Shown here: one piece after another, positions 2,914 through 62,853 of the stretch
How the letters are laid out: each line of letters opens with the position of its first letter
Numbering within the stretch: the stretch's first letter is position 1
NCBI GenBank assembly: GCA_030688545.1
Contig: JAUYHT010000002.1
Location: 135,891 to 199,890, forward strand
From: Candidatus Iainarchaeum sp.
Lineage (GTDB): Archaea; Iainarchaeota; Iainarchaeia; Iainarchaeales; VGJJ01
Reading direction: 5' to 3'
Length of the DNA: 64,000 nucleotides
Notes under the pieces: model-generated
Seen by the model: only the letters and a program-made list of their open reading frames with translations
Told to the model about the DNA's origin: nothing
The model's database searches: none
Made by a program: the position numbers and the translations under genes

Positions 2914-3657
2914 TCACCCCAACGCGAGCAACACTACCATGATCCCCACTCCCAGAAGGAAAAATCCCAATTGGACCAGGGAAACATTCCATTTCACTTC
3001 TTTATGCAATTCAGGAATCAAATCGCTCCCCGCGATATAGAGAAAGTTTCCTGCGGCAAAGGGCACCAGCCAAACGGATAATCCTTCCGCGATTGCTCCT
3101 AATCCAAAAACCAGAAAGACCCCAAACAAGGACGTGAGAGCGGTGAAGAGATTTATCTTCAATGCCTCATTAACCTTGAATCCCCCGTGGAGAAGAATGC
3201 CGAAATCCCCGATCTCCTGGGGAATCTCATGCAGGGCCACCGCGATGGTCGTGGCGATGCCAGCGGGAATACTAATCAAATACGCCGCGGCAATGATTAT
3301 GCCATCAAGGAAATTGTGGAAAGCATCCCCCACTAAATTGACCCACACAAACGGATGCTTATGATCTTCATGGGGGTAGTGGCAATGGCGCCAATGAATC
3401 ACTTTTTCGATGATGAACATGACCACGATCCCCGCAAGGACGGTCAATGACACCTCAATCCCAAACCCTAATTCTTCCACACTCTCCGGGAGCAGGTGAA
3501 TAAATACATCCCCAAATAAGGCGCCGGCCGCAAATGCCACGAGAAAAACCAGATGGCTCCGCAGCCGCTTTTGATTCAGGGACAACGTAAAAATTCCAAT
3601 GAGGGAAATCAAACTCACCGCAATAACAGAAAGAAAAGCATATTCCAATGCCGCCAT
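2914..3657 (-). CDS. ZIP family metal (Zn/Fe) transporter.
   Basis: It carries the HEIPQEIGDFGILL signature of the ZIP/ZupT family and multiple transmembrane helices. Confidence 0.85.
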   Translation of the reverse strand: MAALEYAFLSVIAVSLISLIGIFTLSLNQKRLRSHLVFLVAFAAGALFGDVFIHLLPESVEELGFGIEVSLTVLAGIVVMFIIEKVIHWRHCHYPHEDHKHPFVWVNLVGDAFHNFLDGIIIAAAYLISIPAGIATTIAVALHEIPQEIGDFGILLHGGFKVNEALKINLFTALTSLFGVFLVFGLGAIAEGLSVWLVPFAAGNFLYIAGSDLIPELHKEVKWNVSLVQLGFFLLGVGIMVVLLALG

Positions 3658-3797
3658 AAATGCGCCTCCAACCCAGCGATAATCCGTAATACACCTTTAT
3701 AATAGGAATGAGCCCCCGATGATATAGCAGGCTGCATTGGCGTTTTCTTCCAGGACACCCCTAAGCGGCTTGCTAGGGAAGAATGGTGTTGGCCAGA

Positions 3798-3871
3798 TTT
3801 TTTGATCAACCTTTTTTCCCAAAAAAAAGGACGGAAGAGGTTTTTGATCAACCTTTTTCCCAAAAAGGTTG
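3798..3871. repeat. Two tandem AT-rich palindromic elements: TTTTTGATCAAC followed by a CTTTTT-CCC-AAAAAGG hairpin.
   Basis: Copy 1 is at 3798-3830. Copy 2 is at 3841-3871 and contains the perfect palindrome CAACCTTTTT-CCC-AAAAAGGTTG. The same family recurs at 16110-16270 and 34187-34210. Confidence 0.5.
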
Positions 3872-3950
3872 CGGGGTTGGCAGAGTGGTCGGCCAGTTTC
3901 GACTGGCCACTGCGAAAAAGGGCACCCATTTTAACAAACGGGTGCCCAGT
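3871..3950 (+). other. tRNA-Ser 5'-end duplicate (20 nt identical to the downstream tRNA) followed by two stable hairpins. Candidate pseudo-tRNA, split-tRNA 5' half, or other small RNA.
   Basis: GCGGGGTTGGCAGAGTGGTC at 3871-3890 is identical to 3973-3992. It is followed by the hairpin GGCCAGT-TTCG-ACTGGCC, then CTGC (which can pair with GCAG to give a D-stem), and then the hairpin GGGCACCC-(12 nt)-GGGTGCCC. There is no T-arm and no 3' acceptor strand. Confidence 0.4.
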
Positions 3951-3972: not shown

Positions 3973-4056
3973 GCGGGGTTGGCAGAGTGGTCTATAGCGG
4001 CAGCCTGCTAAGCTGTTCCGGGAAACCGGGCGAGGGTTCGAATCCCTCACCCCGCG
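3973..4056 (+). tRNA. tRNA-Ser (anticodon GCU), class II with a long variable arm.
   Basis: Acceptor stem GCGGGGT/ACCCCGC, discriminator G. Anticodon stem GCAGC/GCUGU with loop CUGCUAA. Variable-arm hairpin CCGG-GAAA-CCGG. T-arm GAGGG-TTCGAAT-CCCTC. The D-arm pairing is poor (GCA versus GCG) and there is one extra nucleotide in the D region, which could mean an unusual structure or a mis-parse. Confidence 0.65.
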
Positions 4057-6652: not shown

Positions 6653-7179
6653 TTTATTTCAGTGTCATGGTGCAGGAGGAGGTAGACGAAGAATATCCAC
6701 GTGAGGAGTAATGGAACTAATAGAATAGAGAAAGTCGGCCCAACCAAGGTTAGTTGATTGTCTAACATGATATCTCCGGGAACGAAAAGAGTGGTGGCAG
6801 TAGCCGCGTGCGCGGGGGTGGGAATGTTGGCCCAATTCAGGAATTGGACAATGGGAAAAACGGGAGAAAACGTGGTCACGATGACGATTAATGATAACAC
6901 GAGAATAGACCATGAAAAAGGACTCCGCTTCACATACACGTTTCCCAAGCCCGGGATGACAATGTTGGAGAAGAGAGCGACGAGGAAAGAGATGCGGGGT
7001 TTCTTGTTTATGTCTTTTTCTTTTGAAATTGGACGGGGATGAACTACTTTTTCTCCCCGCTGGAGGGGCATGATCTTGGAGCGAATCCCTTTATCCATGG
7101 CGTGGATATCGAAACTTTCCGGATCAAATGTTTGGATGGGGGTCTTGCGCCTGGAGACGGAGTTCTTGGGAGGGGGCAT
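6640..7179 (-). CDS. Hypothetical integral membrane protein.
   Basis: The 179-aa protein has several hydrophobic helices. No family was recognised. Confidence 0.4.
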   Translation of the reverse strand: MPPPKNSVSRRKTPIQTFDPESFDIHAMDKGIRSKIMPLQRGEKVVHPRPISKEKDINKKPRISFLVALFSNIVIPGLGNVYVKRSPFSWSILVLSLIVIVTTFSPVFPIVQFLNWANIPTPAHAATATTLFVPGDIMLDNQLTLVGPTFSILLVPLLLTWIFFVYLLLHHDTEIKWSL

Positions 7180-7901: not shown

Positions 7902-8065
7902 CATTCTATGTTTTAGGGAATTGAACCCCATTTTGCAGGGTGGACAAAAATCAAGAAAGCCTGGGGGATTCAGAACCAACCTTTTAGGAAAAGGTTGGCG
8001 AAAAGGCGTCTGGGGTACTGCAGTGGCAGTACCCCTAAGAGCGGGATCGAGGAACAAGACCTCGA

Positions 8066-10770: not shown

Positions 10771-12486
10771 ATGAGTAACAAGGAGATCGCCAACCTTCTC
10801 AATGAGATGGCCGACCTCATGGAAATTTTGGGGATTGAATGGAAACCCCAAGCCTACCGAAAGGCCGCGCGCGTTATCGAGGCGGATCCTGAGCCGGTTG
10901 AATTCTTGTTCAAGGAAAAGGGGGAGAAAGCCCTCCTTGAATTAGAAGGCGTGGGGAAAGGGATCGCCCACAAGATTGGCCAATTTCTCTCTAAAGGAAA
11001 AGTGGACGAATACGAGGACCTCAAGCATCGCATCCCACGGGGGCTGGTGGAACTATTGAATGTCCCCGGGTTGGGTCCCAAGAAAGCGGCGCGATTGTAT
11101 CACGAACTGAAAATTACCTCTCTCGCCCAACTGGAACAGGCCGCGCGCTCTGGGAAGATACGGAAACTCCCCGGGTTCAAGGAGAAGAGTGAGGAAGATA
11201 TCCTCATGGGATTGGAATTGATAAAAAAGGGGACTGAACGAAAATTGCTGGGGATTATTCTTCCCCACGCACGCGCCCTTGAGGAAACCATTTCCAAAAT
11301 GGATGGAGTTGTGGCGGTCGTTATCGCGGGAAGCCTGCGGCGACGCCGGGAAACCGTGAAGGACATCGACTTACTTGTTTTCACCAAAAAGGAGCAAGAG
11401 GTAGCCAAAGCATTGGAAGGATTAGAGGCGTTGGACACCATTGAACGCCAAGGAACCAGCTTGGTGAGCGGACGGCTCAAGATAGGATTGAACGTGGACA
11501 TGCGGATCCTCCCCCCGCACCTGATGGGATCGGGAATGGTGCACTTCACGGGAAGCAAGGCGCATGGGATCGCCCTCCGAAATCGTGCCATCAAGATGGG
11601 AATGAAGTTTTCAGAATACGGATTGATGAAGGGGAAAAAAATAGTAGCAAGCCAAAAAGAAGAAGAGGTGTATCGCGCGCTCCAATTGGAGTATATCCCC
11701 CCCGAGATGAGAGAGAACGAGGGAGAAATAGACATGGCGGCGCAAGGAAAATTGCCCACTCTCATAGGATATGGGGATCTCAAGGGGGATTTGCATACGC
11801 ACACAAACTGGAGTGATGGGGTCCATTCCACGGAACAGATGGTGCAACGGGCGATCGCCATAGGCCACGAATACTATGCCATCACCGACCACTCCTACTC
11901 GGATACGGTGGCCAATGGGCTGGACGAAAAAAGATTGAAACACCACATCAAAGAAATCCATGCTCTGCAAACAAAATACCCCCAAATCCACCTCCTCACG
12001 GGAAGCGAAGTGCATATCGATAATGCCGGAAAACTGGACTACTCCCAAAAAATGCTCAAGGAATTGGACATCGTTATAGCTTCCGTGCACTCGAGCTTCA
12101 AGATGGACCCCAAACAGATGACGAAACGATTAATGAATGCCCTAACGAATGAATATGTCACCTTCATCGCCCATCCCACAGGAAGGCTGATCAACCAGCG
12201 CAACCCCTATTCCTTCGACCTTGATAGAGTGCTGGAGGCGGCCAAGGAAAATGGAAAGGCGATGGAGATTAATTCCTTCCCCTCGCGATTGGATTTCGAC
12301 TACACCCATATCAGGGAATGCGTTAAGCGCGGGGTGAAATTGGTGATCAATTCGGACGCGCACTCCGTCCTCCACCTGGATAATCTTGAATATGGAATCG
12401 CTCAAGCCCGAAGAGGCTGGGCGGAGAAGAAAGACGTGCTGAATGCGCTGACTTGTAAGAAGTTTGAGAAGGCGATTGGGAGATGA
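10771..12486 (+). CDS. polX: Family X DNA polymerase with a C-terminal PHP domain (PolX).
   Basis: It has N-terminal helix-hairpin-helix motifs, a pol-beta nucleotidyltransferase core (GSLRRRRETVKDIDLLV), and a PHP histidinol-phosphatase motif (DLHTHTNWSDG...ITDHS). Confidence 0.9.
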   Translation: MSNKEIANLLNEMADLMEILGIEWKPQAYRKAARVIEADPEPVEFLFKEKGEKALLELEGVGKGIAHKIGQFLSKGKVDEYEDLKHRIPRGLVELLNVPGLGPKKAARLYHELKITSLAQLEQAARSGKIRKLPGFKEKSEEDILMGLELIKKGTERKLLGIILPHARALEETISKMDGVVAVVIAGSLRRRRETVKDIDLLVFTKKEQEVAKALEGLEALDTIERQGTSLVSGRLKIGLNVDMRILPPHLMGSGMVHFTGSKAHGIALRNRAIKMGMKFSEYGLMKGKKIVASQKEEEVYRALQLEYIPPEMRENEGEIDMAAQGKLPTLIGYGDLKGDLHTHTNWSDGVHSTEQMVQRAIAIGHEYYAITDHSYSDTVANGLDEKRLKHHIKEIHALQTKYPQIHLLTGSEVHIDNAGKLDYSQKMLKELDIVIASVHSSFKMDPKQMTKRLMNALTNEYVTFIAHPTGRLINQRNPYSFDLDRVLEAAKENGKAMEINSFPSRLDFDYTHIRECVKRGVKLVINSDAHSVLHLDNLEYGIAQARRGWAEKKDVLNALTCKKFEKAIGR

Positions 12487-16006: not shown

Positions 16007-16109
16007 AGATTTTCCAATGCGCGCGACTATTTAATGAATGCCTCCCCGACCTAAAGGAGGGGCATCCTTCATCGAAAAACGCCAAATGCCCTAAGGGCGT
16101 TGTATCGGC

Positions 16110-16270
16110 TTTTTGATCAACTTTTTTTCCAAAAAAAAAGGCCCGTTTTTTGATCGAACTTATTATTAAAAAGTTCGTTTGATGAAACTTTTTTTCTCAA
16201 GAGTAGGGTTTTTGATCAAACTTTTTCTCAAAAAGTTTGATGATGAAGCTTTTTCTAAAAAAGTTTGAGG
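16110..16270. repeat. Cluster of four to five AT-rich palindromic hairpin elements (GATCAA/GATGAA followed by CTTTTT-N3-AAAAAG) in the scpA-VIT intergenic region.
   Basis: Examples are CAACTTTTTTT-CC-AAAAAAAAAG at 16118-16141, CGAACTT-ATTATTAAA-AAGTTCG at 16153-16177, and TCAAACTTTTT-CTC-AAAAAGTTTGA at 16216-16240, followed by a further degenerate copy. T5-T9 tracts are present on both strands, so these may act as bidirectional oligo-T terminators. Confidence 0.5.
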
Positions 16271-26280: not shown

Positions 26281-27102
26281 GTGGAATATACGCTTAAAAC
26301 ACAGGGCGCCGTAATGAGAAGGATGAACCTGGAAGCGGCCAAGAGACGGTTGGATAATGCACTCGCGCGGAAAGACCTCGTCATGCTCGTGGGAGAATGC
26401 AAGGTAAAATACCAGGGGCGGGCGGCCAGCAACCTGGCTTATGGGAGTAGGTTGTTGCTCATCAAGGGGGATGGGAGTTTTGCCATTCACCAAAACAGGT
26501 TGTTGCGTCCCACCAACTATTTGATGTCCTCTCATTGGTCAACTTCCCTGGAAGAAGGAAGATTAATCGTATCGGCCACGAAACGGAATCCCAAGGAGAC
26601 CCTCATCGTCTCCCTGAAAGATGTGGAGATGCTCCAAGTGCACACCATGGAGGACCGGGATGACGATTTCAAGCTTGTGGGGACAGAGAAAGAGCTGAAT
26701 GACCAGCTCATGGGGAGCTTGGATGTCCTGGAAAAAGGATTGCGCCCGCTCAAGCAGGAGAGCGTACTAAGGAAGGGGTTGGTGGATATCATGGCGGAGG
26801 ATACGAATGGAAATCTCTGCGTCATTGAACTGAAACGACGGCAGGCGGACTACAATTCCGTGATGCAATTACAACGATATGTGCACGAGGTGCGCAAGCA
26901 GAAGAATGCCAAGGTCCGTGGTCTCCTCGTGGCCCCCACCATCGGACGGCAAGCCCTGGAACTCCTGAAAGGGTATGGATTGGAATACTTCTCATACACA
27001 TTTGATGTTACTCAACCCCGGGTAACCATTGATGGTATCGACACCAAACAACGCACCATATTCCAGGCGCTCGGGAATAATGGGGCTACTAAAAAAATAT
27101 AA
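26281..27102 (+). CDS. nucS: Endonuclease NucS (EndoMS, mismatch-specific endonuclease).
   Basis: The 273-aa protein has an N-terminal dimerisation/ssDNA domain and a C-terminal RecB-like nuclease with DIMAED...CVIELKRRQADYNSVMQLQRY. Confidence 0.85.
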   Translation: MEYTLKTQGAVMRRMNLEAAKRRLDNALARKDLVMLVGECKVKYQGRAASNLAYGSRLLLIKGDGSFAIHQNRLLRPTNYLMSSHWSTSLEEGRLIVSATKRNPKETLIVSLKDVEMLQVHTMEDRDDDFKLVGTEKELNDQLMGSLDVLEKGLRPLKQESVLRKGLVDIMAEDTNGNLCVIELKRRQADYNSVMQLQRYVHEVRKQKNAKVRGLLVAPTIGRQALELLKGYGLEYFSYTFDVTQPRVTIDGIDTKQRTIFQALGNNGATKKI

Positions 27103-27173: not shown

Positions 27174-27449
27174 CGGCCGCCGGGGATTCAAAGAATCCCC
27201 TCGTCCATCGGGGCGGCCGATCGAAAGCGGCCCTGGTTGAAAAGTGGACATAGGAATGAAACAAATTGTTACGGCCGCTGGGAGGTCAACGACCTCCCAC
27301 GTCCCTCGGTGCGGCCGGACGAAAACGGCCCTCAAAATCGTGCAGCCGGAGGAAAGCGGAAATTGTCGTCGTTCGGATTAAGTGTCGTTCCGGCCGCCGG
27401 GAGGGTGTAACCCTCCCTCGTCCATCGGGGCGGCCGGACGAAAACGGCC
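27174..27449. repeat. Three tandem copies of a 59-nt GC-rich double-hairpin repeat (at 27174-27232, 27272-27330 and 27391-27449), separated by unique 39-60-nt spacers.
   Basis: Each unit has the form CGGCCGC(C/T)GGG-[hairpin A]-(C/A)CGTCC(A/C)TCGG(G/T)GCGGCCG-[loop]-CGGCC. Hairpin A differs between copies but stays paired: GGGGATTC/GAATCCCC, GGGAGGTC/GACCTCCC and GGGAGGGT/ACCCTCCC. A second 3' hairpin is GCCG-(ATCGAAAG or GACGAAAA)-CGGC. The array lies between the convergent nucS and a membrane-protein gene. Confidence 0.65.
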
Positions 27450-27946
27450 TAGTGCTGCTGCAAAATCCCCCCCATGTAGATTAGGGGGAGGCCGCTCACC
27501 AGGGCAAGGGCTATGGATCCATTGTTCGCCAAGGTGGCAGGGGAGAATGTCAAGACGAGGAAGAGGAGCAGGTGCAATCCCCCCACGCCATACCAGAAAT
27601 GCTTAGTCGTCCATACCAATCCGGTGGCCAGGAATCCGATGGCCGTGACCAATGCCCAGTAGGCCCATGGATCAGGGATGAGCGCGGGAACCAATTGGGA
27701 GGCAAACAGCCAATGATACACCATCCCGAGGATGACCACGACCAGCCAGACATGCACCACTTTGTTCTTGGACCAATGGGGAACCCATTTGATCATTCCT
27801 CCAATGCCAATGAGGGAGAGCAATGTCCACAATGGCAAGGGGGTTGGGAAGGATGGATTATTCAAATAGAATTGATAAATCCCATATCCGAAGAGGGTGA
27901 TGAGACCCCACAATAGGATGGATTTGGAAAACCCGCTCATGGCCAT
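27449..27946 (-). CDS. Hypothetical polytopic membrane protein.
   Basis: The 165-aa protein has about 5 TM helices. Its stop is adjacent to repeat copy 3. Confidence 0.45.
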   Translation of the reverse strand: MAMSGFSKSILLWGLITLFGYGIYQFYLNNPSFPTPLPLWTLLSLIGIGGMIKWVPHWSKNKVVHVWLVVVILGMVYHWLFASQLVPALIPDPWAYWALVTAIGFLATGLVWTTKHFWYGVGGLHLLLFLVLTFSPATLANNGSIALALVSGLPLIYMGGILQQH

Positions 27947-32781: not shown

Positions 32782-33054
32782 ATGAGGGCACTATCTATGG
32801 CAACCCGGGCGATCCAAAAAATGAGTGCGTGCGTGGTATGCGGAAAAAAGGCCACAGTCGAGAATACCTTCAAACTAGCCAGTTGCGGGACGCACGCGGA
32901 GCTGGGCACGCAAGCGCCTCCGTGTCCGGACTGCGAAACCAAAATGGTGGTGAAGATGGGCACCTCCCGCGCGTTCTGGAGCTGTCCCAAATATCCTCTT
33001 TGCTTCGGCACCCGAAACCTGCTCAATCCATTCGAGGAAGTGGATCAGCTGTAG
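32782..33054 (+). CDS. Small double zinc-ribbon protein carrying a topoisomerase-I-type C4 zinc finger.
   Basis: It has CVVCGKK...CGTH, then CPDCETKMVVKMGTSRAFWSCPKYPLCFGT, which matches the zf-C4 topoisomerase motif CPxC...W.C..YP.C..T. Confidence 0.5.
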   Translation: MRALSMATRAIQKMSACVVCGKKATVENTFKLASCGTHAELGTQAPPCPDCETKMVVKMGTSRAFWSCPKYPLCFGTRNLLNPFEEVDQL

Positions 33055-37893: not shown

Positions 37894-38256
37894 TCAACGT
37901 CCTGGTCTCTTACGGGAACCGGGACCCTGATGGGGCTTAGGACCCTGAAGGGGCTTGCGACCTTGGGAGGGCTTGGGTGGCTTTCTATTAATGGAATAAT
38001 AACGCATGAGTCTTGAGTCGCTTATAACTCTCTTTCTTCGTAAAATCGCTAAATCTCGGGACGTTAAATTCATTTCTATTTCTCTAATAGTAGGAACTTT
38101 TCTATCCACTGTATATTTATCGACAATCTTATACGCATCAAAAATCAGAATCCTTAAACCTGTTGTAAGTTTCAAAGCCAATTTTAATTTTCTCCCCTCT
38201 AATGTACCAGAAAACCACTCTTCACTGAACATTTTATCAGGCCCTTTATCCGCCAT
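37894..38256 (-). CDS. Hypothetical small basic protein with a C-terminal Pro/Gly/Lys repeat tail.
   Basis: The 120-aa protein ends in KPPKPSQGRKPLQGPKPHQGPGSRKRPGR, encoded by 3 x 18-nt tandem repeats at 37923-37976. It was chosen over the overlapping plus-strand ORF. Confidence 0.35.
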   Translation of the reverse strand: MADKGPDKMFSEEWFSGTLEGRKLKLALKLTTGLRILIFDAYKIVDKYTVDRKVPTIREIEMNLTSRDLAILRRKRVISDSRLMRYYSINRKPPKPSQGRKPLQGPKPHQGPGSRKRPGR

Positions 38257-58948: not shown

Positions 58949-59010
58949 CGGCCGCCGGGGGATTCGAAGAATCCCCCTCGTCCATCGGGGCGCACGATCG
59001 AAATCGTGCG
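58949..59010. repeat. Fourth copy of the GC-rich double-hairpin repeat family.
   Basis: CGGCCGCCGGGGGATTCGAAGAATCCCCCTCGTCCATCGGGGCG plus the 3' hairpin CGCACGAT-CGAA-ATCGTGCG. Hairpin A is GGGGGATTC/GAATCCCCC. The 3' hairpin has a different sequence from copies 1-3 but the same position and pairing. It lies immediately 3' of the 59012-59206 gene. Confidence 0.55.
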
Positions 59011-59011
59011 A

Positions 59012-59206
59012 CTAAAAGTCGAATGGCTTCACCGTCTTCCGCCCGCCCTGCGAGCAGCGTCCAATGGCGCGCTTCAACATCTCCTGAACTTGTTCATTCA
59101 ACGCATCATAGGCGTCGGATGACATCATCATATCCTTTCCGCGAATAAAATCCGCGACTTTGCTCTTCACAATATAGGTTTCGGCCATATCAACCAATCC
59201 TCCCAA
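59012..59206 (-). CDS. Small histone-fold-like protein (DUF1931-like).
   Basis: ETYIVKSKVADFIRGKDMMMSSDAYDALNEQVQEMLKRAIGRCSQGGRKTVKPFDF resembles the archaeal DUF1931 histone-fold family. Confidence 0.45.
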   Translation of the reverse strand: MGGLVDMAETYIVKSKVADFIRGKDMMMSSDAYDALNEQVQEMLKRAIGRCSQGGRKTVKPFDF

Positions 59207-62592: not shown

Positions 62593-62853
62593 GTCTTCAC
62601 GAGGCGCGCCCGATTAAAAAAGGCTCCGGCCCGATCCGTTGGGCCGCTTTCGATCGGTCGCTCCGAACCCGGATTATTTACGATACCCCTGGAGAAATAT
62701 TTGAATCCCCCTCACGAACTCGAGTAAAGAGATTCTTTTGGATTCCAATTCTCCTTGAGGTCTCAGGTGGGAATCTGAACTCATCCAAATACCTTTATCG
62801 GCACAGATCGATTATCCAGTGAATATTAAAAGGCACATCCGTCTTTTTTCTTC

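Follow-up and report, generated by a model that had tools for sequence, protein, structure and literature searches.

A 64,000-nucleotide (nt) stretch of a Candidatus Iainarchaeum sp. contig (JAUYHT010000002.1, positions 135,891 to 199,890; hereafter the window) contains a tandem array of three GC-rich double-hairpin units, u1 to u3, and a fourth unit, u4, 31 kb away. Analysis of these units revealed a wider family of elements built from two hairpins, A and B, whose stems co-vary and whose hairpin B lies at a sharp junction with a stop codon or with a displaced piece of a target gene. We propose, at a probability of roughly 0.55, that the units form a non-autonomous, structure-dependent family of mobile repeats with a core of ~50-60 nt, lineage-restricted and multi-copy, similar to repetitive extragenic palindromic (REP) sequences and MITEs (miniature inverted-repeat transposable elements) and functionally their archaeal counterpart. 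The original prediction, made from the sequence alone, had named four candidate roles: a multicopy small RNA (sRNA) family, a structured 3' untranslated region (UTR) or terminator, a REP-like extragenic palindrome, or a miniature mobile element. The last two fit best, given a patchy distribution, empty orthologous sites, contig breaks, copies in decay, accretion in tandem and duplicated targets at tRNA genes. Structured repeats of the REP/MITE kind are known as a kind, the two-hairpin plan and the insertion signatures are unusual, and the element is not an RNA family of established function.

The four units of ~59 nt were all confirmed on the + strand (Table 1), with a GC content of 65-75% compared to 51% for the window. 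They share a 16-nt core, CTCGTCCATCGGGGCG, which is present without mismatch in three units and with three mismatches in u2; at up to three mismatches the core matched the window five times compared to 0.8 expected, and none of 100 shuffles reached five. In all four units, as originally described, hairpin A pairs perfectly by Watson-Crick rules over 8-9 bp around a 3-nt loop and differs in sequence from copy to copy, and perfect hairpins of at least 8 bp were enriched in the window (14 compared to 0-7 in shuffles). In u1, the 5' sequence CGGCCGCC is followed by hairpin A (GGGGATTC-AAA-GAATCCCC), the linker TCGTCCATCGGGGC and hairpin B (GGCCG-ATCGAAAG-CGGCC). Hairpin A of u2, (T)GGGAGGTC-AAC-GACCTCCC(A), gains a ninth pair from two apparent mismatches to the consensus flank (C>T and T>A), and that of u3 is GGGAGGGT-GTA-ACCCTCCC; both units have hairpin B as GGCCG-GACGAAAA-CGGCC. 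The distant unit u4 combines hairpin A as GGGGGATTC-GAA-GAATCCCCC and a linker identical to that of u1 and u3 with the different yet fully paired 3' hairpin that had been noted before, CGCACGAT-CGAA-ATCGTGCG, a compensated stem. An outer helix between the 5' CGGCCGCC and GGCGGCCG was also considered and rejected, having no counterpart in the other subtypes; because this pairing is uncompensated in u4 and competes with hairpin B, hairpins A and B are the selected helices.

Within the array, spacers of 39-60 nt separate the units, with start-to-start distances of 98 and 119 nt. These spacers had been called unique, which fails for the second, since it holds a decayed 3' half unit with 78% identity to hairpin B. 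The earlier conclusion that the array is not made of CRISPR repeats held: the units are only 72-77% identical to u1 over 61 nt, their spacing is uneven, a spacer contains a decayed unit, and a Pfam search of the ~68 open reading frames (ORFs) of the window gave no significant Cas family, the sole trace being a sub-threshold Cas4 (DUF83) similarity within NucS.

Further copies were sought with covariance models, as the original prediction had advised, and were found both in the same genome and in another lineage. The first model (R1), built from u1 to u4, also picked up weaker relatives, whose reading exposed a common plan; the second (R2) was built from eight elements and searched without filters. 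In the window, R2 recovered u1 to u4 together with an intact copy on the - strand at 3891-3947 and a degenerate copy at 62642-62689, both missed by the original count of four. The next 10 kb of the same genome (contig L167) contained two more intact copies, n1 and n2. This genome has at least three intact copies beyond u1 to u4 and two decayed ones, giving at least nine copies or remnants in ~78 kb, all of them intergenic. In the other lineage, R2 found two strong copies and one weak copy in contig L038 and one copy in contig L041; the enolases of L038 and L041 share 86% identity.

Comparison of these elements showed that they share a plan in which a variable, perfect hairpin A (8-11 bp, 3-4-nt loop) is followed by a 10-16-nt linker with an invariant TCG and by hairpin B, which has a co-varying stem of 5-8 bp and the conserved loop NCGAAA (UUUCGN on the opposite strand, where the hairpin reads N(UUCG)N'). 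On the modelled strand the hairpin A loops are AAA, AAC, GTA, GAA, GTA, GATA, GAA, AAC and GCA, a strand-asymmetric composition. The 3891-3947 element consists of hairpin A as GGGCACCC-(12-nt loop)-GGGTGCCC, linker TTTTTCGCAGT and hairpin B as GGCCAG-TCGAAA-CTGGCC. The degenerate copy has a broken hairpin A and, in hairpin B, a single A·C, which is a G·T on the opposite strand. This copy and the decayed half unit at 27342-27359 were taken as evidence of birth and death within the family.

The co-variation of the stems was assessed in an alignment of ten elements that retained only the outer 8 bp of long hairpin A stems and the last 10 nt of each linker. Standard pairs occupied 97.9% of 140 cells, and two-sided changes were found in 12 of the 14 base pairs (38 cells), one-sided changes in none. 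None of 500 shuffles reached any of five co-variation measures, and sliding the 3' partners as a control gave pairing of only 35-55%. Both hairpins co-vary, hairpin B occurring as GGCCG/CGGCC, CGCACGAT/ATCGTGCG, GGCCAG/CTGGCC, AGCCAG/CTGGCT, GGCCTG/CAGGCC, GGCCCG/CGGGCC and GCACGC/GCGTGC, while the linker TCG and the loop CGAAA are invariant across the ten elements. The earlier proposal that selection acts on pairing rather than on sequence thus gained support well beyond chance from the additional copies.

The same proposal had read the co-variation as a sign of selected RNA or DNA structure. Pairing is under selection, but the pairing evidence does not point to RNA specifically, since there was no G·U pair in the 137 paired cells. 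Outside the trimmed alignment, two G·T pairs were seen, one in the inner part of the 3891-3947 stem and one in a second hairpin of L041. The lack of wobble pairs means that both strands stay complementary. A hairpin or cruciform of DNA, a structure that both transcripts require, or palindromes corrected by template switching would lead one to expect this; selection on a single RNA strand would do so less.

Signatures of insertion were found at two tRNA genes and at an enolase gene. An exact displaced duplicate of nt 1-20 of tRNA-Ser abuts hairpin B of the 3891-3947 element, and the functional tRNA-Ser (3973-4056) starts 25 nt past hairpin A; the flank repeat scored 44 compared to a null maximum of 21 (p<0.003). 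Upstream of tRNA-Ile(UAU), ~5 kb past the right end of the window (L167, 10108-10364), two serial insertions occurred, with the order native TATA region, GGACCCGCAGCT, n1, 20 A-rich nt, GGACCCGTAGCTCAGCCT, n2, 24 nt, tRNA. The proximal duplicate, GGACCCGTAGCTCAGCCT, is an exact copy of nt 1-18, and the distal one, GGACCCGCAGCT, corresponds to nt 1-12 with one mismatch (U8>C); U8 is universally conserved in tRNA, and the distal insertion is the older. All three tRNA duplicates begin exactly at +1 and end in the D-arm or D-loop (12, 18 and 20 nt). As a separate observation, the sole good TATA box of this locus, CTATAAAAC, lies upstream of the distal duplicate, so that tRNA-Ile is probably produced from a leader of ~190 nt that includes both elements.

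At the enolase gene of L041 (1296-1490), the 3' end of the gene occurs in two copies of ~45 nt, with 12 differences between them, most of these synonymous. Immediately after the element comes the second gene end, which encodes GKKAAFGK* compared to GKKAVFGK* in the functional copy, and this displaced end resembles the end of the L038 gene more than the resident end does. These features suggest that the current enolase end of L041 was imported together with the element, either in an event similar to integration at an attachment (att) site or by homology-facilitated illegitimate recombination. An origin of the array spacers from displaced copies of the adjacent membrane-protein gene's 3' end was also considered but not supported, as only GATTTTG was shared (p=0.03) and other matches were non-significant.

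Intact elements place hairpin B at a precise boundary, which is a displaced target fragment in four cases and a stop codon in five. In the latter (u3, u4 and the three L038 elements, L038a to L038c), the gene reads towards hairpin B and its stop abuts the hairpin or lies within 2 nt of it. The TAG stop of the membrane-protein gene next to the array occupies 27449-27451, the last base of u3 being the first base of the reverse-complemented TAG, and the C-terminus of the encoded protein is as long as in its orthologues, indicating that the gene was not truncated. Similarly, the TAG stop of a small gene at 59012-59014 is 1 nt from hairpin B of u4, which lies between this gene and the next gene of the same strand. 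In L038, the stops abutting hairpin B are at 11095, 14233 and ~8063; the junction of L038b is made through a B-like mini-hairpin that overlaps the stop, and in L038c the TAA of an uncalled zinc-ribbon gene is followed at once by hairpin B. This gene, of the Top1-type (L038, 8063-8340, - strand), is an orthologue of window positions 32782-33054 and is absent from the gene calls of the contig.

The stops at hairpin B comprised four TAG, one TAA and no TGA, compared to 31 TGA, 26 TAA and 11 TAG among the 68 stops of the window. This bias could be due to chance, to a preference during insertion or to the junction itself providing the stop. The original claim that the units sit at the 3' ends of genes was borne out for the u units, which follow the minus-strand stops at 27449-27451 and 59012-59014, but does not extend to the family, as three elements lie in tRNA 5' leaders and a decayed copy lies between divergent genes. 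The label DUF1931-like for the gene next to u4 was not reproduced; Pfam gave only a weak histone-fold match (PF00808, E=0.0025).

Comparison with related genomes showed that the distribution of the elements is patchy. The order of genes at the array (DHH phosphoesterase, prolidase, nucS, array, membrane-protein gene, MopE-repeat protein, enolase) is conserved in relatives, and the interval from the membrane-protein gene to nucS is 347 nt here compared to 11-75 nt to the next gene in the syntenic contigs L036, L037 and L038, with an extra gene in L036. At this orthologous site, L036 and L037 are empty and L038 carries an element of another subtype, the presence/absence pattern expected of MITEs. 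R2 found no copies in L036, L037, L162, L163 or L164-166, nor in the 4 kb to the left of the window. The window enolase is at most 65% identical to any other in the protein collection, its nearest named relatives being 'Candidatus Diapherotrites' (DPANN archaea). Between the two carrier lineages the enolases share 58% identity, compared to 60-68% with the element-free cluster; since each carrier is nearer to the element-free cluster than to the other carrier, the two are not sisters.

Independent short-read assemblies were found to break inside the units. One Logan contig corresponds exactly to window positions 27399-59008 and the next begins at 58980, so that the two overlap by 29 nt inside u4, implying that other copies, or variants in the population, have 30 nt or more in common with u4, its special hairpin B included. 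In addition, a contig of an NCBI metagenome-assembled genome (MAG) ends at 27362, and contigs L039 and L040 end within the L038a element.

From these observations we infer mobility in trans, recognition of a single-stranded fold and, possibly, an effect at the RNA level. In this model, a trans-acting protein encoded outside the window would recognize the folded single strand through the loop of hairpin B and the linker, in which case the stems would be free to drift by compensated pairs and the unpaired parts would be frozen. New copies would be inserted with hairpin B at a sharp junction, either right after the stop codon of a gene reading into the element or within the 5' part of a tRNA gene, where duplication of nt 1-12, 1-18 or 1-20 would leave an intact tRNA downstream. 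Repeated hits at one site could produce tandem arrays of the same orientation, such as 27174-27449. Transcription of an inserted element would be unavoidable, either within the 3' UTR of the gene upstream of it or within a tRNA leader, and a secondary effect of its very stable hairpins may be to protect the transcript or to set its limits. A comparable division between parts is known from REP families, in which the unpaired tag is kept while the stems vary and which in some cases lack a linked transposase (PMC3733652), and ribosomes have been reported to stall at E. coli REPs that lie no more than 15 nt from a stop codon (PMC12306157).

Several observations weigh against this proposal. Among the ~68 ORFs of the window no transposase, integrase, reverse transcriptase, Rep or Cas gene was found, so that the mobilizing activity is hypothetical. 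Neither terminal inverted repeats in u1 to u4 nor, in a flank-repeat test, significant target duplications around u1 to u4, L038a and L038b were found. Pattern scans did not extend the family: the 30 matches listed for GTDB genomes were all chance matches in GC-rich genomes without hairpin A, and the three matches in metagenome contigs were chance matches in coding DNA. The strict placement at stop codons could reflect an RNA function rather than an insertion preference. Finally, the element downstream of enolase keeps a related hairpin A in L038 and L041 (GGGTGCTTT and GGGTACTTTTT, respectively, with a compensated G-C>A-T change), which suggests that an individual copy has been conserved over the long term and has a function for the host rather than being purely selfish.

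Among known systems, REP sequences and the bacterial interspersed mosaic elements (BIMEs) that they form, which are bacterial repeats with a GTAG/CGTC tag, some mobilized by REP-associated tyrosine transposases (RAYTs), resemble the elements in being short, GC-rich extragenic hairpins in many copies, in keeping an unpaired tag constant while the stems differ from one subfamily to another, in having some families without a linked transposase (PMC3733652; PMC12306157), and in clustering in arrays, just after stops and between convergent genes. Like REPs, the elements are multi-copy (at least nine including remnants in 78 kb), extragenic and variable in their stems by compensated changes. However, each unit here has two different hairpins, one with a fixed loop, and no GTAG/CGTC tag lies directly 5' of a stem: the u-type units carry CGTC on the 3' side of hairpin A, which is neither the required side nor the required strand, and the L038-type and 3891-3947 elements have neither tag. 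In addition, the units of the array run head-to-tail and do not alternate in orientation, the host belongs to the DPANN archaea, and long duplications of the target accompany the insertions in tRNA genes. A search of the window found no RAYT (IS200-like Y1 transposase).

MITEs, including the palindrome-associated transposable elements (PATEs) derived from IS200/IS605 insertion sequences, are likewise small, non-coding, multi-copy, structured and patchily distributed, have decayed copies and disrupt short-read assemblies. The elements differ from MITEs in that they lack terminal inverted repeats, hairpins A and B being unrelated and no inverted-repeat pair bounding the unit beyond the internal stems; in that target duplications have no fixed length (12, 18 and 20 nt at tRNAs, ~45 nt at the L041 enolase); and in that no parent insertion sequence was seen. 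Integron attC sites share recognition of a folded structure, conserved ends and a variable but paired center. In contrast to attC, the elements have no R''/L''-L'/R' boxes (GTTRRRY) and no cassettes (the spacers are only 39-60 nt), and no integron integrase was found.

The main rival to a mobile repeat family, although an unlikely one in our judgment, is a host-functional RNA module at the 3' ends of transcripts. Read in this direction, the order is stop codon, B', linker', A'; B' would present a U(UUCG)R tetraloop right after the stop and A' would act as a generic, very stable clamp, the module blocking 3'-to-5' decay, marking a site of 3'-end processing or termination, or slowing terminating ribosomes, with copies spread by duplication and retained by selection on each mRNA. 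Such a module would account for the five cases in which B' abuts the stop or lies within 2 nt of it, for an antisense loop N(UUCG)N' closed by a U-A or U·G pair in most copies, for conservation of loop and linker across lineages whose enolases are only 58% identical, and for the compensated changes in both stems of the enolase-associated copy of L038 and L041. Moreover, the non-convergent cases (u4 and the tRNA leaders) are all co-oriented with upstream transcription, and ribosome stalling by REPs within 15 nt of the stop offers a precedent (PMC12306157). However, the absence of G·U from 137 paired cells is unexpected if a single RNA strand is selected, and the element is missing from the orthologous genes of five relatives. 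The terminator role originally considered was not upheld in a bacterial-type or archaeal oligo-T form: a terminator scan of the units found no T-run after the hairpins, and across the family, where no consistent U-tract follows them, T-runs came after the element only in L038b. The three copies in tRNA leaders and the decayed copy between divergent genes also fit poorly with a 3'-end function, and target duplications and tandem accretion would be left unexplained.

A second alternative, which we regard as rather improbable, is that the elements are the visible part of an undescribed archaeal insertion system, which would recognize a folded two-hairpin single strand (DNA or RNA) and attach the B end of that strand to a transcribed segment where it ends. 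The point of attachment would be either immediately behind a stop codon or, in a tRNA, behind nt 12-20, with the tRNA regenerated from exactly +1. The displaced tRNA pieces match the extent of 5' tRNA fragments, from the mature 5' end to the D-loop, which leaves room for an RNA-mediated step (ligation or priming, and reverse transcription) or for a structure-guided recombinase without a known relative.

Integrated replicons provide a third explanation, in which plasmids or viruses inserted site-specifically at att sites would have accreted in tandem and left the hairpins as the part next to attP; the hairpins could then be, as one option, a bipartite rolling-circle origin with the non-conserved palindrome as binding site and the conserved hairpin as nick site. 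Rolling-circle origins of the pT181 family and of SNJ2 (Rep-Arvir) are bipartite in the same manner, with a non-conserved palindrome beside a conserved hairpin in which the loop and the pairing matter and the stem sequence does not, and the SNJ2 origin lies at the end of the integrated provirus (PMC13107129). Direct repeats of the target-gene end flank the inserts at tRNA-Ser, tRNA-Ile (twice) and the L041 enolase, the functional copy is always proximal to the element, and that of enolase differs at synonymous sites, as would be the case for an imported attP copy. Integrative and cis-mobilizable elements that accrete in tandem at tRNAs or gene 3' ends share these flanking repeats, the serial inserts at one site and the preserved gene copy.

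Nevertheless, we give integrated replicons little credence. The inserts are merely ~80-110 nt and non-coding, without gene remnants, and they duplicate the 5' part of the tRNA (exactly from +1 to the D-arm or D-loop) rather than the usual 3' part. At least seven elements with seven different hairpin A stems lie in one chromosome segment without plasmid or virus context, which would require seven binding specificities, and nine copies or remnants in 78 kb are too dense for independent provirus relics. In addition, u1 to u4 and L038a to L038c lack att duplications, and the window ORFs include neither an integrase nor a Rep gene. Collections of mobile genomes also gave no support: blastn of the array against plasmids and phages had no match, and scans of viral contigs yielded 0, 0 and at least 120 chance matches, leaving a single weak R1 match (26.9 bits).

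Independent sRNA genes, that is a multicopy family with its own promoters, are very improbable: the structure is conserved with fixed single-stranded segments and the units stand out at 65-75% GC in a 51% GC genome, but no promoter-like AT-rich box occurs at a constant distance, stop codons directly adjoin the units, some copies have decayed, and the family has no Rfam match and is absent from close relatives. Chance, or plain local tandem duplication without structural selection, might have been entertained for the four copies first seen but is refuted by the five occurrences of the core, by at least ten elements in three genomes with fully compensated changes and by the shuffles.

The original statement that the family was not recognized was upheld by searches for known RNAs, with no Rfam match at gathering or E-value thresholds. 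At the gathering score only two tRNAs passed in the window, and the best E-value matches over the elements in the window and relatives had 13-18 bits compared to cut-offs of 45-175, being generic hairpins. Six-frame translations of the units against a protein database, directed at spurious ORFs over other arrays, gave nothing at E<=10. By eye, the elements lacked the defining motifs of H/ACA and C/D sRNAs, K-turns, hammerhead and other small ribozymes, guanidine riboswitches, tRNA-like minihelices, origin recognition box (ORB) sequences and recoding signals of the selenocysteine or pyrrolysine insertion sequence (SECIS/PYLIS) type. A target hairpin of a diversity-generating retroelement was dropped as a candidate, as no template/variable repeat pair was present.

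DPANN archaea have tiny, tightly packed genomes, and to our knowledge little is known of their mobile DNA or of the biology of their RNA 3' ends. The elements indicate that structured repeats are tolerated and propagated by such compact genomes, both at the ends of genes and within tRNA leaders, and they explain why short-read assemblies of these organisms fragment at particular sites. With 12 of 14 pairs compensated, loop and linker fixed and no wobble pair, the family also provides a natural data set for an enzyme that recognizes hairpins. Serial insertions that duplicate the 5' end of a tRNA from +1 are unusual, and if an enzyme were tied to the elements, it could represent a new site-specific or RNA-mediated insertion activity.

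Table 1. Positions of the elements and of the genes and fragments adjoining them in the window
Feature	Position	Strand	Remarks
Diverged intact member	3891..3947	-	R2 44.8 bits, E=5e-11; in 5' leader of tRNA-Ser
Displaced exact duplicate of tRNA-Ser nt 1-20, GCGGGGTTGGCAGAGTGGTC	3871..3890	+	Repeat family D9; directly abuts hairpin B of the 3891-3947 element
nucS	26281..27102	+	Convergent with membrane-protein gene; ends 71 nt before u1
u1	27174..27232	+	R1 85.9 bits; R2 53.8 bits
u2	27272..27330	+	R1 83 bits
Decayed 3' half unit, GCAGCCGGAGGAAAGCGG	27342..27359	+	78% identity to hairpin B (repeat family D2)
u3	27391..27449	+	R1 85.3 bits
Membrane-protein gene, 165 amino acids	27449..27946	-	No Pfam hit; TAG stop abuts u3
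u4	58949..59010	+	R1 80 bits
Small histone-fold-like gene	59012..59206	-	TAG stop 59012-59014, 1 nt from hairpin B of u4
Degenerate u1-like copy	62642..62689	-	R2 21.7 bits, E=2e-4; between divergent genes

A repeat search of the window also revealed a second family of AT-rich hairpins, (G)GTTTTTGATCAAnCTTTTT-NNN-AAAAAGnTTG, with six copies: two upstream of the tRNA-Ser region (3797-3871) and four in tandem between VIT1 and ScpA (16108-16267). One similar AT-rich hairpin lies near tRNA-Leu (7976-7998). The stems of this family vary with pairing kept, and the 5' TTTTTGATC is conserved; these hairpins could serve as bidirectional terminators or promoter elements or make up a further repeat family. 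The MAG and Logan contigs L169 and L170 begin ~50 nt beyond the point where the ZIP transporter gene (2914-3657) has its start codon, which leaves ~90 nt before the first copy at 3797.

Two other segments were noted. At 37900-37975 of the window, three tandem copies of ~18 nt, similar to GGACCCTGA(T/A)GGGGCTT, occupy a 219-nt gap between called ORFs and may represent a short, repetitive piece of coding sequence in the minus strand. In L038, a GC-rich segment at 6850-6900, GGCCGGCCCCGCATGGGTTGGCGTGACCGGCC, lies inside an unusually long intergenic region (668 nt) and could be a structured RNA gene.

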